DNA of 63,588 nt, counting the filler, from Neolecta irregularis DAH-3 (Eukaryota): NCBI GenBank assembly GCA_001929475.1. It is 7 parts of 7 records of this genome, joined end to end, with 100 filler letters (N's around TTAATTAATTAA, not from the genome) between each part and the next. Parts side by side here need not be neighbours in the genome. Positions count along the whole stretch, not along the records: positions 1 to 11,396 come from LXFE01002647.1; positions 11,497 to 33,633 come from LXFE01000215.1; positions 33,734 to 48,427 come from LXFE01000216.1; positions 48,528 to 56,358 come from LXFE01000217.1; 3 more parts are not named here. One strand, written 5' to 3'. A program made the position numbers and the translations under genes. This document shows, one piece after another, positions 1,516 through 51,914 of this stretch (position 1 is its first letter; each line of letters opens with the position of its first letter). Under the pieces are notes generated by a model. The model searched no databases. It was given only the letters and a program-made list of their open reading frames with translations, and was not told where the DNA came from.

Positions 1516-2304
1516 ATGTCTGAACGCAAGGAACACACCCACTCACGTCGGTTTATTCTAATTCTCTAGGTCCTGAATAAATACTATCCCCCAAACTTTG
1601 ATCCCACAAAAATCATCCGCAGAAAAGGCGGCGTCTCCAAAGGCCCAAAGCAACAGACCGTTCGTCTCATGACACCCTTTAGTATGCGCTGTAACTCTTG
1701 CGGCGAGTACATCTACAAGGGAAAGAAATTCAACGCTCGCAAGGAACATTCGGGGGAAGCCTACATGTCTATCTCCATCTTTCGTTTCTATATTCGCTGT
1801 ACTCGTTGCTCTGCCGAAATTACCTTCAAAACAGACCCAAAAAACGCAGACTATACTGCAGAACGCGGTGCTTCGCGTAATTTCGAGCCATGGCGTGAAC
1901 AGCAAAAAGAAGAAGAAGAAGATAAACTCGCCCGTCTTGCAGAGGAAGAAGAAAATGCAATGACAAAACTCGAAAATAAAACTACAAATACAAAACGTGA
2001 AATGGAAATCATGGATGCTCTAGACGATATCCGGACCAGAAATGCACGCAACGAAAGAATCGGTGTCGAAGGTGCTGTTCGCCACCTCGAATCAGAAACT
2101 CAAAGATCTGCCATAGAGACAGAAGAGGATCGTTTAAATCGCCAGGATGCAGAAATCGCCAAAACAGTATTCGACAAAACCATCAAAACTACAATCACGC
2201 CAACCCCTGCCAAATCTTCTATTGCATCATTCAAGAAACCAAAAGCGAAAAAACCAAAGCAAAACGGCGTGGCTCTTGGTATAGTTTTAAAGAAAACAGT
2301 TTAG
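1516..2304 (+). CDS. YJU2: Splicing factor Yju2/Cwf16/CCDC94
   Basis: MSERK|VLNKYYPPNFDP...MTPFSMRCNSCGEYIYKGKKFNARKE...FYIRCTRC...ITFKTDPKNADY. Intron 1531-1569 begins GA. Confidence 0.95.
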
Positions 2305-2356
2305 CGTTAATGCATTAAAGTTTTGTAATATGTAGTATCCATTCCAATAATCCTAT

Positions 2357-5300
2357 TTATATCCTATTATACATGACCATAAACGACCGAATCAAGCGAC
2401 CCAACTCATCCATAAAGGGTCCATCCCAGCAAGAGACTTTGGGTTTACTGCAAGAGAAATCAAATCGATGATTGTTTGATTAGCGGGAATGTTTGGTTTC
2501 GCCACTTGGGAAAGAGAAACAGCCCTCCGAACAACCATATCCACATTCGTCGCCACGCAATCACGGAGCTGTGGGCTATCGGCTACCGGACGGTGCTGCT
2601 GAGTGAACCAGGTACTATAAAAATCAACTGAAGAGTTTTAAATGATGGACATACATCAATTCATCCCGGACAAAGATGCAAAGATACTGGTCAAGCTCAA
2701 ACTAGAAGTGTTGGTGAAGAATCTTTGAAAATGATCATACTTGAGGTTCAGTCAAACATTTGGCGATTGCCATCAAGGCAAACGAAAATATTCCTTCAAT
2801 TCCCACAGGTCCCATGAAATTTTGGACATTTGATGTAAATCGGAATGGAACCGCTTCCGAGAGATGAAATACCGGATTGTTGGGTGCCATAGCTACTTGT
2901 AAGGAACTATAGCTTGTCCGCATACATGGCAACAGCTCTGATGTCCAGATATTTCCGGTGGCTCTTGAGACAGAAATCTTGTGCGGAAACCGATTGCCGA
3001 TATGCATGACGTAGCACATAAAGGTGAAAGTGGCATATTGATAACAAAACTGCTTTCTAAATAGCCAGTAGTCTTCAAAATGTCCATATGTCCGCCGTAC
3101 GTACTAATCGTTAACGCCAATAATCGAGGCAAGTTACATCTGTCAACATGCTTGAAGAGACCATTGACTTTTGTATTTCTTCCAGGATCTCAATCTTCTC
3201 AAAGATGAGATCTTGAGGCTAAGAATCAGTACAAGACCCTCAGGACGAACAAACAGCTTGTTCGTTGGTGAACGCATTGACTTTCTGAGTGTAAAACTTG
3301 AGAGGATCATCTTTATGCATGCCGGTTTTGTGGCAATATTCTTCGTAAATTCCTTGAAACGAAACAAACGATAGATCATCTTGAATGATTCGAATATGGG
3401 GAGCGAGTGGTACTGCTGTTGGGAGATTGTACTGAAGGTTTCGACGACGGCTTTCTCTTTTCGATGACAAAGCGCTAGCCATATTAGAGGAAAATAACTA
3501 GAGAGCAGTTACCTATTAAGGATCCGGAAAAATTGTACTATTCGTTCCTCCCTCCTGCAATGACGTGCTGCAGGATACTGGACATGAAATGGATGTTGAC
3601 TTCCATCGTGCCCTCGAATCGTAAGTCGACGATAGCAAATGCCGTTCCCCCGAACAACTTCCAATGTAGGTAGAAACCTCAAGATTTTGATGAAGTCGTT
3701 ATTGTTATCCTTGTGCTATGACAATAAGCCCTGGAACTAGCAAACGATCTTGACCAAAAGGTATTGTCCAGGAACTTCAATGTCGTCAAATTTCTGGTAT
3801 TGGAATTCTGTCAAGTACGGACTAACTTGTTCCAGATACTGTTTGTCCTGCCGTTTATCTAAAACAAGTTCAAATCGATCGCGCCATTGACGAAGCCGTA
3901 ATATGTAGGTGTGAAGAGTAAGGTTTTGTTGTATAAAATCTCTTTCAAACGCCGACTGTACGTTTTAAATCCTTACGATCAAATAGAAATTACCTTTAGC
4001 GATTTCGGCACTACCGTTTCCGAAAAACGCACGATATTAGCTTCTGTAGCTGGCGGAAGATTTGAATCTTCAGTCAAAGTCACCGCACGGCCAACATACT
4101 AGTGGTAAGAACAGAGGCTTTAATGTCAAATACTTGAATTGCATCGTTGAGAAGAGCAACCGTCAAACGATATGCATCTTCGTCAGCTGGACACTTCAGC
4201 CGTTGTTGAATTTGATCAACCATTGTCTCCATGGATAAAGCCAATAGCGGAAATGCCGTTTTCAATATAGCCATGATCTCGTCAACATGTTCCCATGGTT
4301 GTCGGGTCTGAATTTGAACACTCTTTGAAAGGGGTGATTCTGTGCGAGCACCATTGTGCATAGCCTGTACTGCTAAATGTTAGAATTTATAGGATTATTG
4401 TGGGCCATACAATCTGAAGGGGACTGTTCGGAAGATAATTCAGCGGGATTTGGTCCATTGGTCTCGTTGCCAAGATAATTTTGATTTGATTGGACGGGGG
4501 AAGTTTCTACTTTGACTATCGGGTCACTGGTAGAACGGCCTGATCGCGCCGTTGCATTCTGCGCGGCAGCATACGCTTGCTTCTTGATTATGGTGTAATC
4601 TTCCTTTGTCGTGCGAAGTTGGAAATGCAAAGCCTGTTTATTAGCGCATCCAAAACATAGCCAATACCTGGGGATAACTTTTGGCAATTTTGATGAGAAT
4701 TTGTCTAGCATAGCGTGCTTCTTTATGGGATAGTGATGTTAGGAGTTGTGGTATGAACGTAATCCAGTACCAAACCGGCACTTCCCCTTTATAAGACTCC
4801 CATCCTTTAGCAATGTTTCCTACTTGGTCGTCGAGGCTTAGGAGCCATAATACACGATTGAGGAGTTTTCTCGACTTTTTATTCTTATAGATTCCAGCGG
4901 CTTGGAGGTAACAACTGACAGCATGACATGCCAGGGTAAGGTCCTCGGGGTTTTCTTTAAACCTACGATCATTATATCGACCCCACTCAGCCCAAGCCTT
5001 CCCAAGAGTGATATCAATTTGAATGGCCGTCGCAAAAGCTTGACTTGCTTCATCTTTCATCTTCAAAGCCGCAAGAAACATTCCTTTGAGAGTGAAAAAC
5101 TCTGCTTTCTGCTGAACACCGAAATAAACGAGATTAGTGTTACTAATCACATCAAGTCCAGTGCTTAATTCTGCAGGGTTTTGGTAGTGGCATTTGGCTT
5201 GTTCGCGGAGCTTGAGGAAAGCTTCTTGAATTTCAATGTTCGGCAGAGTGTAAATCTTGGTTAGTTGATTGATACACACTCCAGGAAGCTGATGTTTCCG

Positions 5301-8300
5301 TGCAACGTGCGCAAACCGGTTGATGATCCAAGCAGTTTCGTGATAGCCTCGATAGGCATACGAGTTTGCGTTAGAATTGGCGCTCTGAGGTAGATTGGAC
5401 ACTAATGGCATATAAGTCCTATTAATGGTTGCGAAGACCAATTGACGCCATGCCACGAGATCGCTCCAAGCCGTCATATCATCCCATGTATTGGGGAGTC
5501 GCTCCCGCCACGATTGTAAAGTACTTTTCAGCTCCTGGGATTTTGTTTCGAGATTTTGAGTCTGCGTGCTGAGAAGACCGGCATAGATCTGGGAAGCTTC
5601 TTGTAATTCAACAAATTGTTGGAAAGTTTGCAGAAGGGGGGTATGTGCTTGATTGACAAAGGCTGGCAAGTTGTTCCACCTTCGTAATGAAAGCTGCATT
5701 CCTTCCTCACAAATACGATTGAATTCTTGAGAGGAATCTCCCCTGACTTGAGCTCTTTGCAAGGCCAAAAAGGCTTCAAAGACACAGCGGCGAGGCGACG
5801 GTTGATCGCAGATGAGTTTTAAAGCAGCCTCCAACGTTTCCCTGTCGGTTGTCCAGTCTGTGATTCGCCATGCACATTCCAATAGCAGCTCGGAAAAGTT
5901 CTCATGTTTTGCAAGGTCAGTGAGGATATCCCATTGTTGAAGTTTCTGGGCACAGAGAACCCAATGATCTTCCCAAAGTTCATATTCGGATTCTGAGAAT
6001 GGGATAGCGCCGGTGCGAGCTTTGATCTGGGCATTTTCGTACATTTGCTGTGCTGCCTCCCACATTCCAATTTGCTCGTAGGATTGGGCGGTATTTGTCT
6101 CTGTAAATTTGCATCTGCGTCTCCAAAGGCCATAAAACATATCATCTTCGCTAAGCAGCGCGTATAGTTCCGCCAGGGCATCAAGGTAGTTGTCTCTTTT
6201 CCCTAGTTCATCGCTGTCTCCCAAGAACGCCGTATTTTGAAGTAGCTCCAGAGCTACATACCAGGAATCGAAAGTTTTGCCAAGGTATTTGGTTAGGTGA
6301 GATGGTAAATGAATAACAGGAAAACTGCAGGAGATCGCCTCCATCAAAGTCTTGATAATATTGGGACGCTTATCCATTTGACGTATATGGTATTCGCGGG
6401 CGAGCAGGGTGACCAAGGCCTTTGTAAGCTCGGAGCGATCTGTTTTGCCGATCGCAGCCCAGCACATAGGGAATAGATCAATCCAAAACATATGAGCATA
6501 GTTAACATCAAGATGTTGTAAACGGGCGATAGGCTCAAGTAAATCACCGGCACTGACCCGAGGAATTGTTTCGACAAAATCCCGATGATGGTCTGAAAAC
6601 CTCTCGAGCGCATCGTCGACCATCATACTGCTAGATTGTGAAGATGACTCCTCAGCTAATGACGCCAGGTTGGAGATACACAGAGATTTTAATTGTACTA
6701 GTGAATCAGTCTTCACAGAGCCAGATAAAATTTGCACGGCTTGCTTGAGCCAGTAGTGTGTTGCTAGAGACTCCCAATCTTGAAGTGCAATGACATAATT
6801 GAGACGGTTGAACACATTCCTTGACATGCTACCATCAAATATTGTCATGAACCTGTTACGGATCTGATAATCCTCGGCTCGAGTACCCATCAAGAAAGCG
6901 TTTTCCAGGCGAACGGTCAATTCTGTGCGAGCCAAAGATTCATCTTCGTAGACATGAATGATCAACTCGAGAAACTGATTAATAAGAGTATGGTCGCCTT
7001 TATGTTCTAAAGTAGGGATTTTCAAAAGAACTGCAGTCTTTTCCTTGACTGTGGGAAAGGGCTCAGACTTGTCGAGCACCCATGCTTTTATCATGTCAAA
7101 GAGCTTATGACAAACAGCCAGATCTGCCGATTTCTCCAACAACTGTACGATCACAGTAAGGAAGGTCCTTCTTTGGTCACCGAGGACGCTAATACGTCGA
7201 CGTGCGATATCAATAGTCTTCAAAGTCAGCTCACTTGCAGTAAGCTTATCCAGCTCGGAGGGACCGACCGAGGCGTCCGGGTTGATCGCTGGAACATTCG
7301 AGGAAACTTGTGAGGATGTTGAAATATGATCTTTTGCAAGTTTTTGAAAGATTTTCATCAAACCAGTCACATTTGCATCGACAATATCGGGCCGGGCCTC
7401 TACTAAAATCGACAACAGCCCGACGAGAAGGGATAGATTCGTGGATGACTGCAGCAAATCTTGGACAACTGTAACGATGAATGCCTCGAAATCCCTGACC
7501 GAATTTTCGTCGACTAGCATTTGGTCTGCAAGAGTGATTTGATAAAACCTTTTTGCGATTTTAAGAACATACTCTTGTAGAGCTGGAGCTTCAATGCGAA
7601 TAACAGGCGTCAGTAGCTTTTGTATGTCCCTCAAGTTATCCAAGAGCCAAGATTCAGTTTGATTCAAACAAATAATCTCCAAGGTTTCCATCGTGCTGGA
7701 GAAAATTGGAGCAGTGGTGTCGCTATATTCTGTCTGAATGAGGTTTCGTTCAAACATGCCTAGCTTTGTGTCAGCGACCGGCCAAGTGCGGCCTTCGAGA
7801 AGGATTCTTAACAAGAATAATGCGCGCATAGTCAACGTTTTGCGATTAGCAAAGTCGGTACTTAAACAGAAATGCACGAGGTGCGTCAATATTGAATCCC
7901 GAAGGCTGTCTGAAGCACTTGATGGTGAGGTATTTGCGTTGTCTCGATTTCGTCGCTGTTCCCAGCGAATGATCAATTCGATCAAATCTAGCGACAACGC
8001 CTTGGTTTCAGTATTTGAAGAGGTCACAAATCCTAGCTTTGGCAATGACGCAACGATATGCAGAGTATATACATCTCGAAAATCGTAAAACATGTCTGCA
8101 TGTCTCGCCATGAAATGATAGATATTCATAAGCTGCGAAACACTCTGGCCGTCTTCTTGAATTAACCGAGAAGGCCATTTTGCCCAGTGGGAAGCACGAC
8201 CATCGCCACTTGCTCCCAGCCTTTGAGGAAGTACAGCAGCAAGAATGTCTAGAGCCTGTCGCACGAGTATTTTTCCATCGGCTTGGTGAGATTTCAGCAA

Positions 8301-11300
8301 GGCTACATAAATCTGAGTGACGATTTTGACCGGTGTTTCAAAGGCTGCGATGAAATAGGCGATTAATACATAAGCCGCCTGTTTCGTCATAACATCCTCA
8401 ATCTTGATATAATTCCAAGCGAATTTAATGACGTCTTTCCGGACTTCTTTTACTAAAAAGGGCCTGTTCTTGACGATCAAAGCGGATAGCTGTAACAACT
8501 CGACACGAAGAAAATCATTGGAACATAGCTTGTCCTTTCCATAGTCCGACAGCGCGGGTTCCCAGATATTACTATGAATGAGTTCGACCATTGTTTTATC
8601 CACGATGTTGCCCGCGCTACCTTCAGTGTCCAAGTTGGACGCAATCTGGGGGTTTAGAATGTAGTGAAAAACGAAATATTTGACATCATGAGACGTCGTT
8701 TCCTTTGGAAATAATTCGATACATTTCAACAGAATTTTCGCCTTGTCGGGTTGTGATGCGGTATCTGTATATTCCGTGAACAGGACACGATAAAGGTCTG
8801 CGTAATTTGGTGCGACGGACAGAATTGATTCTGCAAGCGCAAAGAGTTTGTCAATTTCATTCGGGTCAAATTCAACCAGCTGGAAGTGGAGCTTTATGAG
8901 AACTTCAAAGGCCTGTTCGATTGCGAGATGGCGGCCAGAACCATGGTATTCGGTTTGTCCTTCGAGGCGCATCGCTTGGGTAAGATTTTGCAACAGAATG
9001 TGTAAATTGTCCTTTTGATCGCCGAGACATGCTGGATTATGCTGCAATAGACTCTTGAGAACGTGAATCCCACAAATCGTAGCGCTGGCAAGATCGGATA
9101 TACAAACGGGTCCTTCCCGCTGAATTATTTCCGAGATATTTCCTCCAACTACATCCCTTAGAGGTTCACTGATCTTATGCGAGAGGGCTTGCCACAAAAG
9201 TCTCTGGTACTTGTTATCGTCAAGTCGTGTCTTGATAAACAACCACGTTTCTTCCGAATAGCGATTTAAAAATTTGTACAATGGCAAACGAAATGGACTT
9301 GTCTGGGTTCTTCGCAAGGTTTCTTCTAGCATGAGCACTTGGTCGATCAAATCCGCTAAAAACATGTTTGCAGTTGGGGGAAGGAGATGAAAAACGTTGA
9401 TGATGGCAACGACGATTTTGATGTTTTGGTGCTCTTCGAGGGGTCTCAAGGCGGCTTGATGTAGGACATTTGACTCTGCCCACGCTGGTAAATGATCCAA
9501 CAGCTTACGTCCAATCTCTACTTTAAAATAATTTGTCAGCAATTCGAGTAACCTGGCGAGACCTTCAAGCCCTGTGGTCGATAAACGCTTATGGTCTGAC
9601 AGGTTCATCAAGATTGGACGGAGACCAGCCTGAAGGAGGTCTTTTGGCAGTTTCTGGTTATGTACAAGGACCTGGCGAAGACCACAACTGGCAACCGCGA
9701 CGATGTCTGGATGTTTGGCGTACAAGGACTTGAAGAAAACTGAAATAGTCCGGCCTTTTGTTTGATTTTGTTGGGCAGAGGAATCAGGAAGGGATATTGC
9801 CGTGGACAAAAGTTTTATGCAAGCAATTCGCAGCTCGGCAAGCGATGTCTCCGTTTTATATTTAGGCAGAGAACCCCCGTCGTTAACTAGAGCAGAATCT
9901 TCAGCGTCAGCGAGAGCTAAAACTTCATGGAGGAGGCGCATCATTTCGTCGTTGAGTTCCAGTAACGGCTCACCGAGGGAGAGACAAAAGTCAACCGCGT
10001 CGATATAACCAATCTGCATTGCAAGCGGTAATGCACGGAGCGGCTTTGTAAAGATCGAGACGAAAACACGATCTTTTACTGGAATAATAAGCTCCTTGAC
10101 GGCAGTCCCACTTGATTCTGCCAGGTACAACAGGCTTGTCTGGACTGTACTTCTGACTATTGGATTCGAGTTTGACAACTCTGCGACAAGCATTCCGATA
10201 ATCGTGCTCAATCTTGAGATATCAGTACAGTAGGTTGTAGATCGTTGAAGAATGAATATAACAAGATCTTTAGCTTGATTAATGATAGCAAGAGGAGATT
10301 CTTGAGGCATGTCTTTTAGCACGAACAAGACAGCTCTGGTAAAGTCCACATGGTGTCTGAAGAACCAGTCTTCGCCGAGTTCCAGATCTTGGAGCATCAC
10401 ACGTATACCCAAACAGCCCCCAATCTTCTGGAACCAGTTTTCCTCCGCACACGCGTGACACAATTTTCGCGCAAAAGTCTGAAACATGGGGAAGCGGCCG
10501 CAATGCGCAGGGGACCCGAGGATAAGCGATACGGTATTGAATAGATGCCGTATGGCCTGCATTGCGGAATCCGAGATGCTTCCGAAATCAGATGCGAGAC
10601 CTTGAATGATAACGTCGACTATAACGTCAAAAGACATCATTATTTCCTGGCGCTCCTCGAACAAGAATTCGTCCCGTAGCGATTGCCCCTTTAGCAAATG
10701 CTCGAAACCAATTAGTGTGAAATGCTCATAAATGTCTTTGAGGAACCGGGAGGCTTCTTGCTGGAGTTCTAGAGTCTGTTCTGCAAGGAGACATCCAAAG
10801 ATTGCATCTTTTAGTACACTTCGCTGTGCTGCTGCCATCCCAGAACTTGCATGGATGTCTGCATCTGGGATCTGAGTGGACATTCCAGAAACGGTTGGTG
10901 TATCTTCAAGTGTAGACTCGCTGGCAAAGAACAGCTGGACTTTGTGTCGCAGGGAGGCGGCAAAGTCTGGAGGGAGACTCACGCTTCGCATGAGTAGTTT
11001 TACGGCAGAAATAAGCAATCGGAGTGCCTGTTCCTTGAGTTCAAGACCGATTCTCGAGTTTTGCAGCGTTCTGACGGCGAGATCGACATATTTGGCGCAA
11101 TCAATTTTCGAAATAGTTGGAGCTCCATGCAAGCTAAACTCGATCTCGAGAGTAGCGACGGGGATCAAGTGATAGCCAAGGGCTTTTGGATGCGAGAGAA
11201 AGCGCCTGTTTCGCCCGCCAAGTTTTCCAAGGATGCGAAGACTCCCGTGGCTATGCTGAGCCGAGTGGTGAGGCAGGGGTTTTAGATGATCATAGAGGGC

Positions 11301-11396
11301 GCCCATTAGATCGTCAATTACTGGAGCGATAATTGGATCGAAAAAATCTTGATTGAGATTATCGATGCACAGTTCGAGTGTGCGTAGACCTTGAGT
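2357..11396 (-). CDS. TRA1: Tra1/TRRAP PIKK-family pseudokinase (SAGA/NuA4 subunit), central and C-terminal part
   Basis: 2221-aa HEAT/FAT ORF ([35 protein letters not shown]), then PI3K-like and FATC exons joined by 11 short GT-AG introns. Stop is at 2392 if unspliced, or 2357 if a final non-canonical intron is used. Confidence 0.95.
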
Positions 11397-11496: not shown

Positions 11497-11497
11497 A

Positions 11498-12412: not shown

Positions 12413-12414
12413 AG

Positions 12415-12822: not shown

Positions 12823-13118
12823 GTTATTGCGATAACTTGCATGCTCTGAAAGGGGTTTACCTACCAAATAACTAATTTATGTAGATCTAATGTGTATAAT
12901 GTGGCTCTATCTGTTTTTGGGCCAGTTCATTGAAAATATTCAAAATATATAGTTTTCGAAAAGATTATTTAAGATACAGCGCAAGGATCGAGAGTCATAG
13001 TGATTGGCTTACTATCACAAATATAGGACAATGAACCAAGGTATGGTAATATTTTAATATGACTTGCAAAAAATAACAAAAATACTTTGCATGCACGGAA
13101 CTACGGTCTGCGTACGTC

Positions 13119-13477
13119 TTAGTTGCATTTCCCACTATAACAGTGACCACATTCCTCAGAGCCCTTTCCACTGCGAACGTTGACTCCATTTGTACCGTCC
13201 CTGTTCTGACTGCAGCACTTACCCCCATTTTTCTCACTAGATTGATCAGTCGAGAGGGATTGAATTAGGGTCACCAATTATGGAAAGAATTTTGCTTTCG
13301 AAGAAACTTTCCACTGCAATCACATTCTCGCTTTTCAAGTGCATTAAGAACTTCAAATGCGGGATTTGCATTTGCCTCAGGTTCAGCTTCTCTTGCTACA
13401 ATATTTGCAAGTTCATCTGGAATGGCGATGGCTACGAGTGCGAATGCAAGAATCAAGGAAGCAACAGAGAACTTCAT
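13119..13477 (-). CDS. Small secreted cysteine-rich peptide precursor, copy A
   Basis: Signal peptide, EAEPEANANP spacer, KR site, 38-nt intron 13237-13274. Mature peptide ECDCSGKFLRKQNSFHNCEKNGGKCCSQNRDGTNGVNVRSGKGSEECGHCYSGKCN (8 Cys). TATA (TATAAAG) about 45 bp upstream. Confidence 0.85.
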
Positions 13478-14049
13478 TTGTGGATTCGTTGAATATTTTT
13501 TGCTGAAGATTAAACAGCCCTTTATAGATCATTGAAGACGATAAGAGTTGTGGTACAATGACAATAATTTACAGAGACTGAAAGGATCATCGACTAGCGG
13601 AAGATGCGTCGAGAAAGTCAATCAATAGAGAATGATTTCGAGAGTGCTTCAATGACTTTCTAGAATAATACACAATGAGAATCTGGCAAGGCATGTGGTC
13701 GATGCGTCATTTTTTTGTCTTGTGATTGCAGTATCTCCGCCTTTTGATGGCTTGTGTGACATCAAACATTCTTGAATTAAAAGAATTTGTAATTGATGTG
13801 TCGATCTACATTGTATGTCCAGCGGCTATGATGAGGCTGGTCTCTATGGATCGGACGCTTGCGTGTCTGGGCCTGATACTTTTTGTCGTCGGGTAACAAG
13901 TGCAGGCTGACTCAGTCTAAGCTCAACCCTGAAGTGACATCACGACCAGGTTATTTCAGCCGAAAAGTTGCAACTTGGACTAGATATAGCTATATACTCC
14001 ACCTATGCCCGGCCTTTGTTGGCCGTAATATTATCCTACTCTTATAAGC

Positions 14050-14190: not shown

Positions 14191-14650
14191 GGTTGTCTCA
14201 CTCAGTATATTGTGCCAATAAACAATACAATTGCAACGTCATTTTCGTTGACAAGTTTGAGGGTCTGGAATTTCTTATTAAGACTCGGTCTTTCTAAAGG
14301 CTGAGTGTAAACCTTGACGTAATATGGAGCCATTTCCCTCAATGGATAGGAGAATTTCGGGTAAAAAGAAGAAAAAAACAACGAGATATATTCCAGCAAA
14401 GATGGCAAGAAACAAGTGCATTATACTTACAATAGGTGGCAGGCACGTTCAAAAACATCATATACATCATAATCAAGATAGAGATGGCTCAATCAAGTTA
14501 ATTTTCTCTTTAATTCATTTACATTAGATTAGATTGGCTTGGATCTTCTTTTTACCATAGGACATGGAACAGAGGCATCGTACACGCTAAATATGCTTGC
14601 ACAATAGTAATAAATAACGCTTCTGCACACAAATATACCTTGCTTACTTC

Positions 14651-15009
14651 TTAGTTGCATTTACCACTATAGCAGCGACCACATTTCTCAGAGCCCTTTC
14701 CATTACGAACGTTAACTCCATTTGAACCGTCCTTGTTCCGACTGCAACAGCTGCCCCCTTTCTTTGCACTAGATTGATCAGTCGAGAGAGATTGAATTAG
14801 GGCCACCAATTATGGAAAGAATTTTGCTTTCGAAGAAACTTTCCACTGCAATGACATTCTCGTTTTTCAAGTGCATTAAGAACTTCAAGTGCAGGATTTG
14901 CATTTGCCTCAGGTTCAGCTTCTCTTGCTACAATATTTGCAAGTTCATCTGGAATGGCGATGGCTACGAGGGCGAATGCGAGAATCAAGGGAACAAGAGA
15001 GAACTTCAT
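14651..15009 (-). CDS. Small secreted cysteine-rich peptide precursor, copy B
   Basis: Paralog of copy A, intron 14769-14806. Mature peptide ECHCSGKFLRKQNSFHNCAKKGGSCCSRNKDGSNGVNVRNGKGSEKCGRCYSGKCN. About 350 bp of upstream sequence, including the TATA, is also duplicated. Confidence 0.85.
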
Positions 15010-15828
15010 TTGTAATTGAATGAATACCTATTTGCGGAGGACTAAAGGCTGCTTTATAGTCTTTTAGAGTGATACAATGACGATGATTTGCGGAGACCGA
15101 GGGGACCATCGACTAGCGCAAGACGTGTCGAGAAAGACAGCTAATAAAAAGGTATTACCGCATTCTTTCGAACATTTTCTAGAATAGTGCGTAATGGGAA
15201 TTGAGCAAAGTCTAATTTCACCTGTTGCTTTTGTGCCATGTAACCGTAGTATCTCCGCCAGAGGTTTATCTCCCATCCGACTTTAATATGTTTTTGAATA
15301 AACAAGTTGAAACTGCAAGGATTCTCATTGATGTGCCGGTCTATATTAGCGTGCACCGGCTTTGATGGCCCTGGCTTTGTTTAATGACTTGGCCTCATTC
15401 GATTATTTCATACAGACTACAGTCGATCTTTAACAATGACACCACCTGCATCAAGCATGTAAAAGAGAACACTTGAGAGGAACTCGTTGACTAAGAATAT
15501 ATAAGGGAACATTTAAATTGCCCATGTGGGAGTTCACGATTGACTAAAAATTCTGCGGATCAAGATAGTGGAGAGGTTAGCTGACGGTCAGTTGGCTCGT
15601 TGTGCATCAATATTAAAAGTCACGAGAATCTAAAAAGCAGCTTTGTTTTGCGGTTATTCGATTGTCGAACAATGCTGAAGGATGATTTTTCAAGCTATAT
15701 TACTGATGAAAATAGCTCGAACTAGTGATCTTCAATTTCAGTAGCAGTTCTTTTACGCATCTTAGTCTGGACTGAAACTTCATTTGACAACCTCACCACA
15801 GTCATCAGGGTTCTGTCTTACCCGCACC

Positions 15829-18800: not shown

Positions 18801-20623
18801 CTTCTGCCACCCTCGTTCTCGCGTATTAACAAGCATCTACAAATCGACCCAATTCCTCTTGAACCGCTCGAACTCTCAGGAAAGAAGCAAACAAAGAATG
18901 AAGGTGGATTCATTTCCGCGTTTACGTCATATTTATCAAGTTATGCTGTTGATGAACCACCTGAACCCTCATCGGAAGAAGTTGAATGTACCCTTTGCAC
19001 CAAGGATTGCGTCAATTCTTGTCGACTGGATGAGGTTTCTGGTCATCTCATGTATGAATTTTCGAGATTTAACTTAACATTTTAGATCCTTGGATCTCAA
19101 AAGTACTAAACATCTGCTAAACATTCTACTTCCATATGCAACTACGGATCCCACCCGTAAATTCTTGTCTCAGAAGAGAACAGTTGATGTCAATGGACCA
19201 CTCCCTGTGACTTCTTCTGCCGAAACTAATTATGATGCTTCATTGGTTATGATATTCGAATTCGCAACTTGTCTAGTACTCAGAGATGAACAAAGTCTTG
19301 AGGAACTTGGGTATGTTCTTGTCGTATAATTTTACTTACATGAATAGAAATCCTGTAGTAGAAATGCTTGAAGGAGTTATAAAGAACGCTAATCGAGCCC
19401 ACTGTGTCATGATCGAACGGTGCTTTAGATATTTGATGGCCATCTTTGAAAAGGCCGGGAAAGATGTTAACTTCCTACCAATTTCTCAATTGACATTACC
19501 AGCTTGAACAAGTTTCGATTCTCGACATTTTCGATCACATCTCGAATTGGGAAGTTGAACTCCAAGTTCAGTTATGTTCTACAGTTCTTCCACTACTTCA
19601 AAAAGCGCTCACAATCAATCCGCGACTCGCAGAACATCCATCTGTCTTTATTATTTTGCGAAACCTACTTAAACATCAATCCACCGTCGATGTCGTCTTT
19701 ACACTTGTCAAGGATATTATTGCGAACAATCATGTCTTTCAAACAACTTATGTTCCGCTGGTTGAACTGTTGGATGAAATTACGACGATGGGAGAGATTG
19801 GTGCCAAACGCGAACAGCAGTTAGATACATCCCCACGAAGGAGGAAGTCCGGAAAGGTCAATGATAAGCCGCAAGTCCACACTTTTCCACATATACTGAT
19901 ATACTAGACATGGGAAGGTAATCGACCGAGCCAATCAGGCAGTTGAGCAACTCTACAATCTTCGCTTTCTACTTCCCGCCTGGATTCGATACTCAGAACT
20001 TCCACGCGATGAGGCATGGCACACATTATGGGATCCTCTTTTTGCCTCTCTTTCCAAACAATGTTTAAATCCTTGTCGTGAGGTTCGGTTTCATTCGATG
20101 ACACTTCTTCAGCGGACTCTACTATCTCCAGAACTTCTCGAACCAGAGTCAAATGCTTGGGTTTCAATGTTCGAAGATATTGTTATCTCGCTTGCTTTGG
20201 AAATGATGGAACCTAAACTGTCGAATATTGATCCGCAAGGTGTGGCTGATACGAAAGCACAAATGGTCTCGATTGTGACGAGAACTTTTCTCTGCCACCT
20301 TCACCGACTACCTGAGATGATGCCCGTATGGATGTCGGTAGTGGACACTCTGCACAGGTATGTGAGCAAAGGAAGTCATGTCTGAATCTATCAGGCTGTT
20401 GTTGAGCAGAGAAGGGAATTCTCTTCGAGAGGCCGTTATCGAATCAATAAAAAATGTCCTTCTTGTGATGGCTTCTTCGGGGTATCTGTCTCGGCCTCTT
20501 AGCGGGCAGCCTAATGTAATATGGGATAAAACTTATGAGCGGATCAATATGTTTCTTCCTGGACTTTTAGATGAATTATTCCCCGAGTCAAAGGAGGGAA
20601 CCACTGAAAAGGGAACAACGTAG
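15829..20623 (+). CDS. GEA2: Sec7-domain ARF guanine-nucleotide exchange factor (Gea1/Gea2/GBF1 family)
   Basis: AITHCRFEASDSAQDEVVL, FVNYDC, Sec7 motifs FRLPGEAQQIDRI and VMLNTDQHNPQVK, EIIMPEEH. 12 introns, one of them GC-AG (19871-19907). Confidence 0.92.
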
Positions 20624-21001: not shown

Positions 21002-21013
21002 CGACCTTCCATT

Positions 21014-21997
21014 ATGCTTTTCCTACGTCGCTTCAGCACCTTCCCACGAAATCTTGGCAAAAAGTCAATTCCTAGCTTAGCTAATGTTCCGCTCTGGTCA
21101 AAGAACACTGTCGCCGATCCCCCCAGTTCAAGCTCAGAGAGCTCTGGAGGTCTTGTGAAATCAATCCTCTATGGCTCTACGGAAACAAAAGAAGAATCAA
21201 AGAAATTTGAGCAAAGCTATTCAACGCTCCTAGCAAGAGGAAAATATGTTCATGAAATATCAAAGCACAGAGTCAAAGCAGACAAAATCGATGAATATGT
21301 TGGCCTCATGTTATTTGTCTCTTGTCCGAAAAGGTTGACAGACTAGAAGCGAAATGTATCCTCGAATTGCCCAGGAAGAAGGAAATGAATTGCATCTAGT
21401 TGGATCATGGAGAACAGAAATAGGCGAACCCGATACATTTGTTCATATTTGGGAATATAAAGGATACAAGGGATACCATCAAACGCTGAATAGAGTCTAT
21501 AGCGATCCAGTACTATCCCTCTTCTCTTTAACTAATTCGAGTCATTCAAACATTTCCAATCGAGTCTTCTTGATTGCATCTCTTCACGAACTAATGATAT
21601 TATGCAAGAATTCGCGTTTTGGCAGACCAGTCCACCGCGAACTCTTGGGGGAATATTTGAAATGAGGAGCTACCAACTGAAACCGGGGAATCTTTTAGAA
21701 TGGGAAACGCAGTGGAGACATGGCTTAGACTGCCGGCGTCAGGTGATGGAGCCCGTCGGTGCGTGGTTCACTCAATTGGGGTAAAAGTTTTCAGCTCAAT
21801 TCGGAAGCTAACGACGAAGGCGTCTGAATACCGTTCATCATATCTGGCAATTTTCAGATTTAGAACACCGTCTCCGCTCACGGGAGAAATGTTGGGAATT
21901 AGACGGGTGGAATGAGACCGTTAAGAGTACCGTCGGTCTCATTGACAAAATGGATAGTCACATTCTTGTTGCGCTGGATTTTAGTCCATTGAAGTAG
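21014..21997 (+). CDS. NIPSNAP family mitochondrial protein
   Basis: LARGKYVHEI, LVGSWRTEIGEPDTFVHIWEY, GGIFEMRSYQLKPGNLLEWE, GAWFTQLG|RLNTVHHIW, C-terminus FSPLK. Three introns. Confidence 0.92.
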
Positions 21998-23514: not shown

Positions 23515-23845
23515 ATGACCTCCCGGATTTCATTCCAAATTTACGGCCAAGTCCAAGGTGTATTTTTTCGAATTTCCACTCGAGATGTCGCCTCAAAGCA
23601 AAAATTGACTGGCTGGGTTCAAAATACAGGCTCGCAGTCGATCCGAGCAGTAAGCTGATCAATTAGGGCAAGGAACAGTAATAGGGGAAGCCCAAGGTGC
23701 ACCTGATGATCTGAACAAATTCAAGACATTTCTCGAGCGCGGACCAGAAGCGGCAAGAGTTGAAAAGGTTGAAATTAAAGAAATTACGGTCGTTGATGGA
23801 GAGATTGGATTTGAGAAACGGAAAAACCGAAACATGCTGTGTTAA
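23515..23845 (+). CDS. Acylphosphatase
   Basis: FQIYGQVQGVFFR and LTGWVQNT|GQGTVIGEAQG...GPEAARVEKV. Needs a GC-AG intron at 23630-23666. Confidence 0.9.
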
Positions 23846-33733: not shown

Positions 33734-35753
<2,020 letters not shown>

Positions 35754-38979: not shown

Positions 38980-39468
38980 GATTGTTAACATTGGAAATAT
39001 TTGTATATAATCGGACTCCAGACAATACTGGGAATCCACTTGTGTAATAGCCTGACTTAATTGCCATTACTCAGCCCCTGCATGGGAGCGTTGTGTTATC
39101 TTAACCAAGCCTGGCGTCAAATTTTGTGTATGGTGATTGCATATGCCGATTTACTTGCCTGCTTTGGATGACGTGGGTAGGGCTCGCAGGATTGTGTGCC
39201 GAAATATCTATCGAAGATGTAAGAAATGTCCGATAAAGAAATCTAGCCACATTGGGCTGACTTCGTTACTCTGAATCGGGGTGACAGTTCTCTACTTGGA
39301 GTTTTAATTTGCTTGCTCTCTTTCTAAGGTTAGGCGAAACTATGTAACTAGTAAATTCACATTTCACGATTCATCCTGTTGGTTGATACATACTACTCTT
39401 GATTAATATTTGTACAATTTATGAGTCTAGTTGGGCTGGCATAATATGAGGCTTGTGATCAGTCGCCG

Positions 39469-39489
39469 TAGGGTTAACCCTAACCCTAA
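39469..39489. promoter_or_regulatory. TTAGGG/CCCTAA telomere-like motif cluster about 45 bp upstream of an ATG; possible Tbf1/Teb1-type site
   Basis: TAGGGTTAACCCTAACCCTAA. The regulatory role is inference. Confidence 0.35.
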
Positions 39490-39533
39490 GGCAGGATATT
39501 GATGCACAACCTCCACAAATTTCGAGGACTGTT

Positions 39534-42150: not shown

Positions 42151-42238
42151 CTTGGCAAGTAAGCAAGTCAAAACCGTAGACTTGCTTGATTGGACTTGAT
42201 AGACTTGATAGTTTAAACTTTTAAATATTTTCTTAATA
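42151..42238 (+). repeat. Diverged copy of the AAGT/GACTT transposon-end family
   Basis: Similar to 48330-48427. Confidence 0.6.
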
Positions 42239-42923
42239 CCTCTACCAAATATTGTCTGCATTGTCCCAGGATACATTATCATATTGAAATGTCAATTCCA
42301 ATCATTAATATGGATTCCAGAATATCTCAGGATCTTACCAAAGCAAATTTTTCAATTTTTGAAGACCAGACCAGTGTTGGCAACAATATAAACGGAACGG
42401 TATTGGACCCTAACCCTAACCCTATCACCCTAAACCCGATTTCCAAACCGTTTCAGATACAATTTGGATTTCATTACTATCCTCGAGATTTATTGGAAAT
42501 CCTCAATGTATTTTGTGAATTCTTTCTTGTTATAACAGGAATTTACTGTAGAAAATACAATTATAAAGAATTGTTTACTTATTCTTCATTACCCACCTTC
42601 GCCCAGTTTGAATATTCAAATTGTTGAAAATGGGTTCAAAGTCGATTGTAGACCATCACTTTGGGTTCGCAATAACGATGGACAACTCATAGAAAACTCA
42701 GGACGGTCTTTTTGAGCTTGGGCCATAGCTGACGCCAGCTCGCTGAAATCTCAAGTCATGGACGAAAACTAAGATTGCATGGTCTGGAGCTTAGTCCTAC
42801 AGGATGCCGAAGGGTCAAATTCATATTTTTAGAATGACGCACATCACATTTTAATTATAGACCTCTACTGTTTCAGTTTTCTCGACGAACTGAACCATTA
42901 AATAAGCAAAATGCTCAAAAGAT

Positions 42924-43443
42924 TCAAAGAGCAAGAACTGCCAAGTCGACCTGAGCACTAACACTTGCGGAAATATCAACTTTTGCGTCCAGAACCTTGC
43001 CATCTGCAACTACACAAGCTTTAATGTCCGCGGCGATTTCGAGGATTAATTGTTCATGAATTTCAAGTTCGATCCCGGCCTGTGGCCTCTGATTCCAATA
43101 ATGTTTGACACAACCACACTTTCCAAGATAAAGAGCAACTTTTGCTTCAATCAAATTTTTCAGATAAAGATCGACATCGATATCGAGATCAACATTTATG
43201 CCGAGAAATCTCTAGAATATTAAACAAACAATTTTGAAGATTCATGCCTTATCCATTCCGCTAAGTGATCTTTTCGAGTCAACACTGACCCGGTCTCTCA
43301 GCCAGTGACCACCGTCTCCGCCATTCACAGCAACGGCGACAGGGCTACTAAAAACTGTCGACTTGAGCTAAACCGCTGCAATGAGGAGAGATACCAACAG
43401 GGACAGAAAACAAAAATACCAGATTGAGGAGACTTGATTTCAT
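42924..43443 (-). CDS. Secreted hypothetical protein with Kex2 (KR) sites
   Basis: Signal peptide MKSSLLNLVFLFSVPV|VFSSP, then DSKR and MDK|RFLGINVDLDIDVDL. One GT-AG intron and one GC-AG intron (43212-43247). Confidence 0.7.
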
Positions 43444-44632
43444 TTTGAATGTATTGGAGAAGTTGGAGAGAATTGCAGAGATTGAATTGGATGACGAAGA
43501 TTCGAGGGTACCCAAGCAATTTATAGATTTTACTAGTGAAATAATATCTTGTGCACTGATTCGGTTATGCAAGTTGCTTCACTTGTTCGTTACGGGATGT
43601 CTCGGCCAAACTCAAAAGGAGTACGAGTAGAACTCCCCAATGATACAAAATGCACGTTGGCGGTTCGAGAACATGAATAAATGTAACGTGGCTGTAATAC
43701 AAGTGTGTCTGATTGATCAGCGCTTTCGCGATATTGCATATTGAAATGATCATAGGGTTAGCCTAACCCACCTTGACATTATGAAAGTTCACAAGTAATG
43801 ATTCTTTCATGTTGACGAACACAGTATATAACTAAAGCTTCATCATTGCAGGGATCTGGATGGATGAATGAAGTCGTATTGTTCTTAGAAACTCTGTACT
43901 ACGGGAATCGATGGTATACGCCTAGATAATTAGTTCAGATCGGACGATCATCATACAAGTCTTTTGATTGCTACCGTTGTAAAGATATCAAAGTCTAGAA
44001 TTCGCCGAATTTGACTAAGGATGCACCAGACTGCTTTATCAAAGACTACGTTCTTGACGACCATAGACTCAGGGTCATTCATTCTTGTGAAGCATCATGT
44101 GGATTTGGTTTAATTTGTGTCATTCGGTTCTTGCCGATCGGCTTCTGATGCAATTCGTCAATTTCCAATTTCACTTTTCCAGGCTAGCCCTAGGATCAAG
44201 GACCATCTAGGTTTATTTTTTCTACTAATGGAGGCTAAGATACTGATGTCACCATTCAACAATCGTTTCTCAGGGAGTGGGATTGGTCGGCTGGTAAGAG
44301 TCGAAATGTTTAGAAATGAACAAGCTAGGGAGGGATATAGTCTATTCGAGAGAAACGAGGGAACAAATAAAGAATTTGCCAGAAAATAATGTAGGCACTT
44401 TTAATAGTAGTTCTCAAGATGCTGCAGTCTCTACTTTGTACTCAGAAAAAGGAGTCACAGCTGATTTCTCTAAATATCCAGGCTCGGTTTCAACACCTCA
44501 AGAATTTGGTTGAAACTAGCAATCATCAACCGCGTTTGATATTGGGATGGTCCATTTGCATTTCACGAACTTGCGCTGGGTAAGAGAGGCACCGATTCTG
44601 CGTGCGCGCTTCTTGCACATGGCAGACTCGAC

Positions 44633-45230
44633 CAGTGTGGCCAACCACCCGACGGATGGCACCCGGTGGGCCGCCGGCTGGATTAGTAATCCACCCACCC
44701 ACCTACCGGAGACAGTGGAAGTAACCGATACCGGTTCTCTCTCATCAACACCTACAATTGCAGTCCAGCAACTCGGCCAAGATGCACTTATTCAGATCCA
44801 TCCAGGCGGCATCCGGTATATCCGCGCTGACGGAAAAATGGTCGACTGGAAAACTCCAGCTCAATAAACTATCCAACAAGCTACCAAGAATCAAAGACAA
44901 GTCGCGATCTCATTGAGCAGTGGAAAATTAATATACTTTGAATTGGACAGCGCAGAGTTACAAGAATATCGGGAACGGAAAACTGACGCCATCATTGCAT
45001 TGAGCATTGGCGAAGTTCCAGAAGGAAGAGCAAGGAATAACTTGATGGTTTATTGATCCGAGAACGATGTTGATTCTCAGGCTGTTGCGTGAGAATCAGT
45101 ACTGTTCGAACCATTTCTCTAGATCCTTCGAGCACTCTTGATTCTTTTAGCATACAAGCTCTCAGTGCACCTGCAAGCTCACTCGTAATCATGGTGATAG
45201 GTGGGGTCGGTCGGGTGGTTGGCCACACTG
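44633..45230. mobile_element. Non-autonomous hAT-type DNA transposon carrying a captured host gene fragment (Pack-type)
   Basis: Perfect 21-bp TIRs CAGTGTGGCCAACCACCCGAC (44633-44653 and 45210-45230). 8-bp TSD GACTCGAC/AACTCGAC with one mismatch. Confidence 0.9.
44708..45195 (+). pseudogene. RSE1: Decayed internal fragment of splicing factor RSE1/SF3B3/Prp12
   Basis: [90 protein letters not shown]. Premature stop at 44865-44867, frameshifts, and a retained 33-nt intron at 45048-45080. Confidence 0.88.
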
Positions 45231-45884: not shown

Positions 45885-47826
45885 TCATTCGCATTGCTCC
45901 AACAAGCGAGCTTCAACAATATCAGCCCAAACAACTTCCTCAATTCCCTCCATCGAAAGATCTTCCTCGCCCGTCTCAAATCTTCCCAGTATTCTCTCGC
46001 CAGTTTCCGGGTTATACTCTCGTTTGGGAATGTCTCGCTTTGCTAGTCGCACCATGACAGAGCCAGGTTGTTCATCCACTCTAATTACGCGGCCGGTTTT
46101 CCAAGTAGAGAGTCTTGGTTCGTATTGGGGCGTCATAGTCAAGTGTTTAAAGACCACGATCGAATTTACCTTGGGAAGAGCTGCTTGGAGTCGAAGGGTT
46201 GTCGGATCGGAGGGAAGAGGTGGAAAATCTTCGAACTGGTCACCAGAGTGGTGTAATTCATCAGAGAAGGTATTAGTAGTTGCAAATTCATCTATAGTTG
46301 CAATTCGTCGCCGAAATGGGAAGGTTGGGATGTTGACTTGAACATTTGGATCTCCGCATTCAATTGCTCGAATACTGCAGCGAGACTTCCAATCTCCCAC
46401 TGCACTCGATCTATCTGCATAGACAGGATTACTGAAGTTTTCAAAATTTATGCTTTTTGAAGTGGTAAATGTTTCCGTAGGCTTTGACGTAGTTGAATCA
46501 CTTGTCTTCAACAGCTCCCCAGTCTCAGTCTCTAGCCTTTTTGTTTTTCGAAGATTCCTTGTTTTTTGTCTGGTTCGAAAAGCCTCTTTTGCAAATGTCC
46601 AATCTTTTGTCACTGGCTCGGCAGCAGGAGTGATTTCGATTCGTGATGGAGGAGGTGGAAATCTTTGGCTATTGGGGATACTGTTTGATATAAACCTGGT
46701 AATAGCCGGTATATCGGGTATCAAAGTCCCTATCAGTCAGATGATATCTGAAACAATTGGCCTGAGGTACGTTGTTCGGGGTCAACATGAGCCTGTTCCA
46801 TCACTACATCGTTTGACGATAAATCTTGTTGATTCTTATTCAAACGCTCGGCATCTTCCCATGATCCATCCTTAGGAATCATACCCTCGCTCTTGAACTT
46901 TTGAAGCAATCTGGATTTTTTCTTTCGTAGATTCCGACTTTTAGTTTGAGGCTTGCCATGACCAGGTGGTATGTATGTTACTTTCGGGGGGGAAAGTTGT
47001 ATTTCTTCATCTTCATCATCGCCATCAGAGGAAGAAATGGATGATGAAGAAGTTGAGGATTCGGACGATGACGAAATTTCCTTTAAATATTCCTGTGTGT
47101 AATGAGATTTCTCTTGTGCAGCTAATTCCGAACCGGCCGCTGAATCAGAAGACTCACTTTCTTCTGAGCTTGACTCTGCCGACTCAAGATTTCTTTCCGT
47201 AGGGGGAGACTGAGATTTTGATGGAACAGATCTCTCGCTTTTATTTACCTTTAATTTCTTCAAGACACGTCCCTCATCAACCTCTTCATCTTCAGACAAT
47301 GAGGGGTTTCCGCTTTCCTCTCCTTTCTGTCTCTTCGGAATCTCGATTCCATTTCCAAAATTGGAGCGACGACCGTCCGTCCCGGTTGCTCTTATACAAC
47401 GGCCAGAGAAACCATCTTCTCTAGAAAGTCAGTTGTGTCTCGAAACAGATCGCAACACTTCTAGTATCTTGATTTCCCCATTTCTAGAGAGTGTAGATAC
47501 TGAGCCATCGAAGCCTGGGCGCCGCCTTTTCCGTTGTGGTCCAGGAATGTTACACATCTTTGCTCTAGCATGTCGGTTCTTGTCCCGAGCCTAGAGTATT
47601 ACGATACCAAATCTCCATCTCTTATGACACCTTCCACAATCGAATCTCGGAGCAAATCAAAACCATCAACTTGTAGAGACACATGGAAATTTCCGTCAAT
47701 CTGCTTTCGAAGGTATGATGCTATCCGACTCTCCAAATCTGCAATGGGAAATAACTTCAGATCAGAGACTTCCAGCCAGAACTTGATAATCGGAAGTGGG
47801 AGCTGTGTTGAGACACGTATCCGCAT
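45885..47826 (-). CDS. Coilin-like (Mug174-like) protein
   Basis: Ubiquitin-like N-terminus MRIRVST..LP...LQVDGFDLL.DS..GVIRDGDLV, Ser/Glu-rich middle, PPGHGKPQTKSRNLRKK motif, IRAIEC...PFRR, Tudor-like C-terminus. Two introns. Confidence 0.7.
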
Positions 47827-48241
47827 GGGAAAGTAGACGACTTCGGAGATGTAAAAACAGGCAGAAGGGTAAAGTTCAACACGTGAAATATAAATTTGAT
47901 TTGACGATGTCAAATTCCTGAAGGTCTGTTGCATCACTGACGCAACTTTCATTTATGAACCCAGGGACAGAAATAGAGGAACCGAGACGGCTGGGATAAT
48001 GAAATTTCTGGAGGAATGATGAGAACTAAAACTTGGACAAAGGAACAAGATGGGAACAAGGAATACAGAGGCCGGGCGCTATATTTTTCAAACATGCGTT
48101 AACAGCGTATGTATATTACATGTAACACGCAGGATGCAGTTGTAGAGCTTTTTATACTTTAACTTGAATAAAAACCCCGAAAAAAACGGTTGTTCGATTC
48201 CTTTGCTGAATGAATGAAACAGTATTCACCAGTCCTACAAG

Positions 48242-48427
48242 CAGACTGGCTAATAAGTAAAACTTTCAAGTAGAATTTACTTACTTACTTGCTTTGTAAG
48301 CAAGTAAGTAAGTCCGGTGGACAAAAATTAGTAAGTAAGCAAGTCCAAAAACCTAGACTTACTTGTTTGGACTTGATAGACTTGACTGTTTAAGACTTTT
48401 AATGAGACATTGAATATTTTCTTAATA
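48242..48427 (+). mobile_element. AAGT/GACTT transposon end (terminus CAGACT), cut by gap
   Basis: Matches the reverse complement of 11706-11854. Confidence 0.7.
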
Positions 48428-48813
48428 NNNNNNNNNNNNNNNNNNNNNNNNNNNNNNNNNNNNNNNNNNNNTTAATTAATTAANNNNNNNNNNNNNNNNN
48501 NNNNNNNNNNNNNNNNNNNNNNNNNNNGATCGACGGCCGGGGAGCAGCAGCCATGGCGGTGCGGCGGCGGCGGCGGACGGCAAGGTCATATCTAGCGAGC
48601 AGATGCGATTCTAGGCGGGCCGAGGCGCGCTAGAACCGTTCTGCGGCTTCAGCCACCGCAGCCACTCCCGCATTAAGCGAGTTTTACGCTCCCAACCCCA
48701 CAACCCGCCCCTCGCCCAGGCCCGTGAGATGCCGGGCATGCACTCGATATCCCTGATATCTCATGGATAACTCATGCTATTGTACTCCGCAACATTACTC
48801 GTTTATGCACCAA

Positions 48814-50596: not shown

Positions 50597-50742
50597 GGCA
50601 GAGAAACAGAGAACAGGCAGCCAGCGTCTCCGCGCAGTCAGGCGCGCTAGCACCAAGGGGGCTAGCGCCGTGTTCTATAAATAAACACGGCGCTGTTTGC
50701 ACCCGCCGCCCAACAAAGTCACGCTGCGTCATTTCACAGTAC

Positions 50743-51914
50743 ATGGACATTGCCCCGCTGCACGTCCCCGTGGCCCGCAGGCTGCAGACGCTGGTAAGCG
50801 CCGCGCTAGCCGCTCCCGGCTAACCCCTGCTCGGCCGTGGTGTGGCACGCCGTCGCGCTCGCCTTCTTCGCAAGCCTCTTCTTCGTCTGCTGCGCCAATC
50901 CCCTCCTCTGGCCCGTACCCTAACCCTAACCCTAACGACCCTCGCTAACCCCAGGCCCTCCTCCTCTACCTCGTCCGTCCCTCCTCGATTCTCTGCTCAC
51001 CCCAGATCTACTGCGCCAGGGACGATGCCTTTGAGACTGGCCGTCTCCGCAGAATTGCATGGCTGCGCGCACTCCCGCTGTGGTCCTGCTACGCCCACTA
51101 CTTTCCTCTCACCCTCCTCAAGTCAGCCCCCCTTGATCCAAATCATATTTATATACTCGGCTACCACCCGCACGGCATCATCTCCCTCGCTGCCTTTGGC
51201 AATTTCGCCACAGAGGCCACCGGCTTCAGCTTGCTCTTTCCCGGCATCACAAACACTCTCCTCACCCTCGCCTCAAACTTTCGCATCCCGTTCTACAGAG
51301 ACTATATCCAGTTCCTCGGCATTGCTAGCGTCTCCCGCTCCTCCTGCGAAGCTCTTCTCCAGCGCGGACCTGGAAACGCAATCACCATCGTCGTGGGCGG
51401 TGCTCAGGAATCTCTCCTTTCCAAACCAGGCACTCTCAATCTCGTCCTGCGCAAGCGCCGCGGTTTCATAAAACTCGCTATCCGCACTGGCGCCTCCCTC
51501 GTCCCTGTTTTGAGCTTTGGCGAAAATGGTAATCTTTCAGCTTCTCCAAATCTCACCCAAGAACTCTACACACAGGCAGACAATTCCCCAAACTCTTGGG
51601 TCTACTGCCTCCAAACATCGATGAAAAAACTCTGCGGCTTCACTGTCCCCCTTTTTCACGCCCGCGGGGTATTCAACTACGACTACGGATTAATGGTACC
51701 TTTTATTCAAACATCATTAACCATGCAGCCCTGGAGACACCCTGTCACCACTGTTGTTGGCAGACCCATCCCCGTCCAGAAGGCTGATCGGCCAACAGAA
51801 GATATGGTCAACCAGGTCCAACAACTCTATATCGCTGAACTCGTCCGTATCTGGGAGGATGGCAAGGATAAGTACGCTCCTGGTTATAAAACAGACTTGC
51901 GCATCGTCGAGTAA
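50743..51914 (+). CDS. DGA1: Diacylglycerol O-acyltransferase (DGAT2 family)
   Basis: APLHVPVARRLQTL|AVVWH, YFP, GYHPHG, VVGGAQESL, RRGFIKLA, VPVLSFGEN. Five introns (the first ends in CG) and an 18-nt microexon at 50955-50972. Confidence 0.93.

Follow-up and report, generated by a model that had tools for sequence, protein, structure and literature searches.

We analysed a window of 63,588 bases from the fungus Neolecta irregularis DAH-3, made up of several draft contigs connected by runs of N and a TTAATTAATTAA linker, and found six candidate introns in it that do not combine the canonical GT and AG at their ends: one GA-AG, three GC-AG, one GT-CG and one GT-TG. An earlier note on this DNA had proposed that such introns reflect a relaxed splice-site code, in which introns are defined mainly by length and branch-point distance and only the first and last G are needed. 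The observation of odd-ended introns was partly confirmed and is largely real. Relaxed use of splice sites is the best-supported reading of these sequences, and we lean towards it, if only slightly. We infer that the RNA would be cut at the odd ends and that this tolerance would be a property of the whole genome.

As a reference we curated 52 GT-AG introns in ten genes by hand, reading the three frames of each gene by eye and using homologs where these had been fetched. The set covers part of the window, and two of its coordinates were corrected. It comprises introns of TRA1 (10), GEA2 (8), a NIPSNAP-family gene (3), ADH (5), HSP104 (4), DBP2 (3), a zinc-finger gene (5), a coilin-like gene (3), DGA1 (3) and kinesin (8); the curation of TRA1 and kinesin relied on known family motifs. 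As the earlier note had claimed, the window is rich in tiny introns: 51 of the 52 measure 32-45 nucleotides (nt), and the remaining one, in DBP2, has 259 nt. Of the 51 short introns, 41 have a CTRAY-like branch motif 5-12 nt before the 3' end. The donors are degenerate, with G at +5 in only 24 of 52 (22 of 52 before two mis-registered entries were fixed). Among the variants that had been listed GTCAAG, GTCTCT, GTCCGT and GTGACC were seen, and GTTTGA was not located.

The six candidates share the anatomy of this set. With lengths of 36-45 nt and a CTRAY-like motif positioned 8-10 nt before the 3' end, they stay within the range of the curated GT-AG introns on both counts, and in all six the first and the last base is G. 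In four cases (YJU2, acylphosphatase, DGA1 and ADH) an open frame colinear with homologs is restored, and the conserved protein is restored by these boundaries only.

The same anatomy bears on whether machinery other than the major spliceosome removes these introns, either as U12-type introns or as nested "twin" introns whose removal restores a canonical site. Nested introns are known in fungi, and U12-type introns tolerate varied termini. However, the defining U12 motifs are absent from all six candidates: none has the TATCCT 5' motif, five have no U12-like branch box, and the lone match to one (CCTTGA) is found in ADH, close to the intron's 5' end. Ordinary CTRAY branch motifs stand at the usual distance instead, and 36-45 nt is too short to hold two introns. 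We rejected both variants on motifs and length and give them next to no credence.

The six candidate introns

The candidate GA-AG intron is located in YJU2, which comprises the following features:

1516-1530 (+): YJU2 mini-exon 1, start codon and four further codons, encoding the conserved five-residue N-terminus
1531-1569 (+): YJU2 candidate intron, GA-AG, 39 nt, CTAAT branch motif 8 nt from the 3' end (TAG)
1570-2304 (+): YJU2 exon 2, from the alignment to human YJU2 in solved structures

In the alignment to human YJU2 of solved spliceosome structures the first residue of exon 2 falls on residue 6. The five missing residues are encoded in the mini-exon, 39 nt upstream of exon 2, and this five-residue start is identical in four of the five relatives fetched, with one residue different in the fifth. 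When any upstream ATG is joined to exon 2 by GT-AG introns, the solutions span 72-291 nt (72 and 81 nt among them), and each of them deletes conserved N-terminal sequence. Removal of the 39-nt GA-AG intron, whose donor context reads AAG|GAAC, is the sole solution in which neither the mini-exon nor the conserved beginning of exon 2 is lost. We regard the predicted GA-AG boundary as required by homology, no GT-AG option keeping the conserved residues. The annotated YJU2 protein (P0241) begins 43 residues late and is thereby truncated at the conserved N-terminus.

An intron at the same position of YJU2 was found in 31 of 80 related metagenome loci, 28 with GT-AG and three with GC-AG ends. The other loci were intronless (20), had no upstream exon within 400 nt (5) or failed in the motif search (24). 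The position is thus old, and its donor is variable elsewhere too. In the metagenome scan with the YJU2 protein the closest match was 73% identical, and no close relative of Neolecta was found. The three GC-AG loci (L076, L078 and L079) are unrelated fungal-like metagenome loci.

The second case is an acylphosphatase gene with a candidate GC-AG intron:

23630-23666 (+): acylphosphatase candidate intron, GC-AG, 37 nt, CTGAT branch motif at 8 nt

Both exons match solved acylphosphatases, and after removal of these 37 nt the joined product has the spacing of the solved proteins. The donor reads GCTCGC. We enumerated 1960 in-frame, stop-free junctions (18-130 nt), and not one of them was GT-AG. 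Here too the predicted boundary is required by homology.

For the DGAT2-family gene DGA1, the top database match is an annotated N. irregularis DAH-3 protein. Its 5' part reads as follows:

50743-50793 (+): DGA1 exon 1, ending in a conserved RRLQTL-type motif
50794-50833 (+): DGA1 candidate intron 1, GT-CG, 40 nt, GTAAGC donor, CTAAC branch motif at 10 nt
50834-50914 (+): DGA1 exon 2, membrane segment, absent from the public annotation
50915-50954 (+): DGA1 intron 2, GT-AG, 40 nt, with three CCCTAA repeats
50973-51005 (+): DGA1 intron 3, GT-AG, 33 nt, GTCCGT donor

The motif at the end of exon 1 is conserved in all seven homologs fetched, where the membrane segment follows directly. Between the branch motif of intron 1 and exon 2 there is no AG. 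Summed over the seven homologs the local alignment score is 1961 for the GT-CG model, 1742 and 1726 for two canonical alternatives and 1193 for the annotated model without exon 2 (protein P0001, gene 50743-51914, +, skipping 50794-51005). The GT-CG model outscores each of these three canonical models in 7/7 homologs. It is strongly favoured, and the intron is very probably removed at those ends. In YJU2, acylphosphatase and DGA1 alike, the unusual ends that the earlier note had described are present in the sequence, and they are the best-supported boundaries of their introns.

The candidate GT-TG intron is located in ADH. Like YJU2, this gene matches annotated or window-own proteins at 100%.

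26891-26935 (-): ADH candidate intron, GT-TG, 45 nt, GTATGC donor, CTGAT branch motif 9 nt from the end (TTG)
26879-26890 (-): ADH, 12 nt that are exon if TG is used and intron if the annotated AG is used, encoding one cysteine of the zinc site

All nine ADH homologs have the pattern C-x2-C-x2-C-x7-C, which is restored by the TG model only; the AG model drops one cysteine and three further residues. In 9/9 homologs the GT-TG model scores better (sum 1269 vs 1069), and the intron of the AG model, with 57 nt, exceeds all 51 short curated introns. The GT-TG model is strongly favoured, with removal probably taking place at those ends. The case is nevertheless weaker than those of YJU2, acylphosphatase and DGA1, because its canonical alternative is in frame. 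The boundary proposed in the earlier note is present as described and best supported, with an in-frame GT-AG intron of 57 nt as competitor. At another place the annotated ADH protein P0121 (25915-27308, -) retains an in-frame 45-nt GT-AG intron (26397-26441), and removing it gives a better score in 9/9 homologs (2498 vs 2296).

Two further candidate GC-AG introns are found in GEA2 and in a gene for a small secreted protein:

19871-19907 (+): GEA2 candidate intron, GC-AG, 37 nt, GCAAGT donor, branch motif at 8 nt
43212-43247 (-): small secreted-protein gene, candidate intron, GC-AG, 36 nt, branch motif at 8 nt

The GEA2 junction is not conserved with yeast Gea2, and the yeast Gea2 structures do not align across it. 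For the secreted-protein gene no homologs were found, and its Pfam match stayed below threshold. Both claims of a GC-AG intron proved weaker than the earlier note had put them. GC-AG fits the local intron pattern better, but GT-AG alternatives exist, measuring 43 or 61 nt in GEA2 and an atypical 72 or 78 nt in the secreted-protein gene. Homology does not decide here, so that these two may be regarded as optional. A seventh odd intron with a GG boundary, suggested for TRA1, was not found: the ten introns reconstructed in the 3' part of this gene are all GT-AG.

Frequency of unusual ends and alternative explanations

Beside the 52 curated GT-AG introns there are thus two required, four favoured and six possible odd-ended introns. 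Fungal introns are GT-AG in 98.7% of cases (PMC7072748), and at this baseline we calculated about 0.75 odd introns to be expected among 58. The Poisson probability of at least two is about 0.17, which is unremarkable, that of three about 0.04 and that of four about 0.008. For types other than GC-AG the expectation is about 0.2, and two or three cases correspond to probabilities of about 0.01 to 0.001. Since the window was selected for the effect, all these figures flatter the relaxed reading.

The figures count homology-backed cases only. Ab initio gene finders were also applied: a strict version overlooked short exons, and a relaxed version invented odd-ended and in-frame introns, so the counts of neither served as a census. 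The GA-AG introns which the relaxed version placed in kinesin and HSP104 and the GT-GG intron in DBP2 turned out to be wrong when the frames were read. A screen for junctions without a canonical solution returned noise only; it is insensitive, needing 25 codons on each side. At the Rfam gathering threshold no RNA family was detected in the window, hence no small nuclear RNA gene.

Several points weigh against relaxed splice-site use. The window was picked because the effect showed there, and the denominator is a hand curation of part of it, resting in places on family motifs (TRA1 and kinesin). Relaxed rules readily yield false odd-ended introns, as our own gene finder did in kinesin, HSP104 and DBP2. 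A single substitution or a single missed base separates each odd site from a canonical one, and the rule that introns need just their first and last G is based on six sites. In ADH an in-frame AG lies 12 nt downstream of the TG and is used by the annotation (P0121). In DGA1, two GT-AG alternatives (40 and 46 nt, a normal length) keep the frame. GEA2 could use a GT-AG intron of 43 nt (19875-19917, branch motif at 18 nt) or one of 61 nt, and the secreted-protein gene one of 72 or 78 nt.

These alternatives are the core of the explanation by an ordinary splicing code. According to it the GC-AG introns, and perhaps the GA-AG intron, are real and within the fungal range, and both non-AG acceptors are misread: ADH splicing would use the AG located 12 nt downstream, which shortens the protein by four residues, and DGA1 would either be canonical, with exon 2 skipped or the 40-46 nt alternative used, or represent a damaged allele in the specimen. 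Canonical alternatives are available for ADH, DGA1, GEA2 and the secreted-protein gene, and the public annotation is canonical at all sites. The two strictly required cases among about 58 are not clearly above the 1.3% fungal baseline (PMC7072748; P about 0.17). Moreover, GC-AG ends in 3 of the 31 other loci with an intron at the YJU2 position indicate that such variation is common. However, the canonical models lose residues that are conserved in 7/7 homologs of DGA1 and 9/9 of ADH. In DGA1 the 40- and 46-nt alternatives swap the conserved motif for unrelated residues and have no branch motif. In ADH the missing zinc-site cysteine is encoded in frame by the 12 nt preceding the AG, and the alternative intron is longer than any short curated one. 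The annotation, for its part, cuts 43 residues from YJU2, which argues that it is unable to model odd ends. We consider the ordinary code an unlikely explanation, although one to be taken seriously.

A second explanation is that substitutions or missed bases within introns have disguised GT and AG ends in the true genome. Every site is a single base change from canonical, and mistakes inside introns would leave the frame intact. The assembly is also a fragmented draft (N50 16 kb) with linker-joined contigs and a scaffold that looks permuted and carries a 66-nt terminal repeat. Against this stand the coverage of the Neolecta genome, reported as 199-fold for an assembly of 14.5 Mb with 44% GC (PMC5309816), and the state of the exons: about 13.8 kb of curated exon, including one open frame of 6.8 kb, contain neither a frame break nor a premature stop. 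By our arithmetic four to six mistakes per about 2.2 kb of intron amount to a rate that should wreck exons. None of the odd sites is near a contig end or in a homopolymer. We therefore hold sequencing or assembly errors to be a very improbable cause.

Relaxed splice-site use, as proposed in the earlier note, kept its support in part. Length, branch distance and terminal Gs are preserved in all six candidates, whereas two or three of them have canonical alternatives.

Proposed splice-site choice and comparison with known systems

If relaxed splice-site use is correct, the candidates would be ordinary U2-type spliceosomal introns whose 5' consensus is weak past the GT and whose branch site lies only 5-12 nt before the 3' end. 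In a minority of introns the base at +2 or -2 would be non-standard, and these would yet be removed at those ends. The cleavage sites would be positioned by intron length, which is tightly limited, and by the distance between branch point and 3' end, which is short and fixed. The first and the last G of an intron pair in the catalytic centre during exon ligation. With the terminal Gs kept and geometry setting the cuts, the neighbouring base would be less constrained than in most eukaryotes. The data are consistent with geometry outweighing the +2 and -2 bases as determinant of the cut sites, as seen at these few sites. In its strongest form the proposal would be that N. irregularis routinely splices introns of the type G-N...N-G, with 5-10% of its tiny introns lacking GT or AG, constitutive CG and TG acceptors included, and with the 3' cut set by branch distance. 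We put this forward tentatively, as a possibility that we rate somewhat below even.

GC-AG introns are a common minor class in all eukaryotes, and the three candidates found here (acylphosphatase, GEA2 and the secreted-protein gene) resemble this U2-type class, GEA2 having the classic GCAAGT donor. A strong donor consensus usually compensates for the C at +2. The acylphosphatase donor GCTCGC differs from the class in lacking such a consensus. In frequency, one required and up to three possible GC-AG introns in about 58 are at or above the roughly 1% that is usual in fungi (PMC7072748).

For GA-AG introns the counterparts are animals, Oikopleura dioica and Eurytemora affinis, which have thousands of transcript-supported examples, in contrast to the single predicted fungal case of YJU2. 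The introns of Oikopleura are short too. In both animals the GA is preceded by AG and followed by A (PMC7072748), and the AG|GAA context of YJU2 is the same. Non-AG acceptors are not described for these two species in the passages of that paper considered here.

Regarding the acceptors, human U2-dependent introns can have a TG 3' end near an in-frame AG; such alternative sites were reported for 36 genes (Szafranski et al. 2007, PMC2374985). The ADH candidate is similar in that its TG lies 12 nt upstream of an AG. It differs in that the TG would need to be the main site for a normal enzyme to be made. The CG end of DGA1 is unlike the human TG sites, having no AG partner nearby. The tiny introns of ciliates and of the chlorarachniophyte nucleomorph share the very narrow length distribution seen here (51/52 at 32-45 nt); to our knowledge they retain GT-AG ends. 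U12-type introns, finally, also vary in their terminal dinucleotides.

Few features of nuclear splicing are as constant as the GT-AG rule, and this applies most of all to the AG at the 3' end. If relaxed splice-site use holds true, N. irregularis would join the very few eukaryotes whose major-spliceosome introns commonly break the AG rule, and it would be the first fungus among them. This cultivation-free, sequenced fungus would then be a natural system for studying geometry versus base identity in splice-site choice. A full-text literature search found no paper on the splice sites of N. irregularis. The main text of the genome paper, for which RNA was sequenced too, contains the word "intron" zero times (PMC5309816). 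An RNA sequencing dataset of N. irregularis is listed as GSE300630 (PMC13263728).

The three most unusual sites, in YJU2, DGA1 and ADH, are exactly those where the public annotation breaks. What is lost are the 43 N-terminal residues of YJU2, the membrane segment of the DGAT2 protein and the zinc-site cysteine of ADH. With the annotation wrong at these genes, comparative studies on the Neolecta proteome inherit systematic errors. Neolecta serves as a key taxon in work on how multicellularity arose in fungi (PMC5309816).

Further features of the window

The three GAG acceptors listed in the earlier note were recovered as GT-AG introns with G at -3, and they are the only ones with this base among the 52 curated introns:

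21510-21541 (+): NIPSNAP-family gene, GT-AG intron with GAG acceptor, 32 nt, from frame reading
26111-26148 (-): ADH, GT-AG intron with GAG acceptor, 38 nt, junction present in annotated P0121
26744-26778 (-): ADH, GT-AG intron with GAG acceptor, 35 nt, junction present in annotated P0121

The sole long intron of the curated set, the 259-nt GT-AG intron of DBP2 (34025-34283, -), lies within the helicase core. Yeast DBP2 is reported to carry a long intron with a regulatory role in a similar position.

The telomere-like sequence CCCTAACCCTAA occurs four times at three loci (39478-39489, 42408-42419 and 50918-50935), where shuffled sequences lead one to expect none. Short introns are predicted around two of these loci (39455-39494 and 50915-50954), and there the repeat also provides CTAAC branch motifs.

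In the part of the window that holds TRA1, the sequence of bases 1-66 recurs at 11331-11396, and 1-744 (-) codes for the TRA1 segment that lies upstream of the contig end at 11396. Between the TRA1 parts, and behind two gaps of 10 N, an MCM N-terminal exon (Pfam MCM_N) is located at 883-1502. The scaffold of 1-11396 looks permuted or mis-joined.

The second beta-propeller of RSE1/DDB1/CPSF1 is matched by a short fragment at 44520-44864 (+), with no full gene around it. Beside this fragment is a gene with a coilin C-terminal Tudor domain (45888-46736, -).

Two small genes in tandem, at 12950-13560 (-) and 14480-15090 (-), share 86% identity, and their products are secreted cysteine-rich peptides. 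A single short GT-AG intron interrupts both genes at the same place, with the donors GTGACC and GTGGCC.

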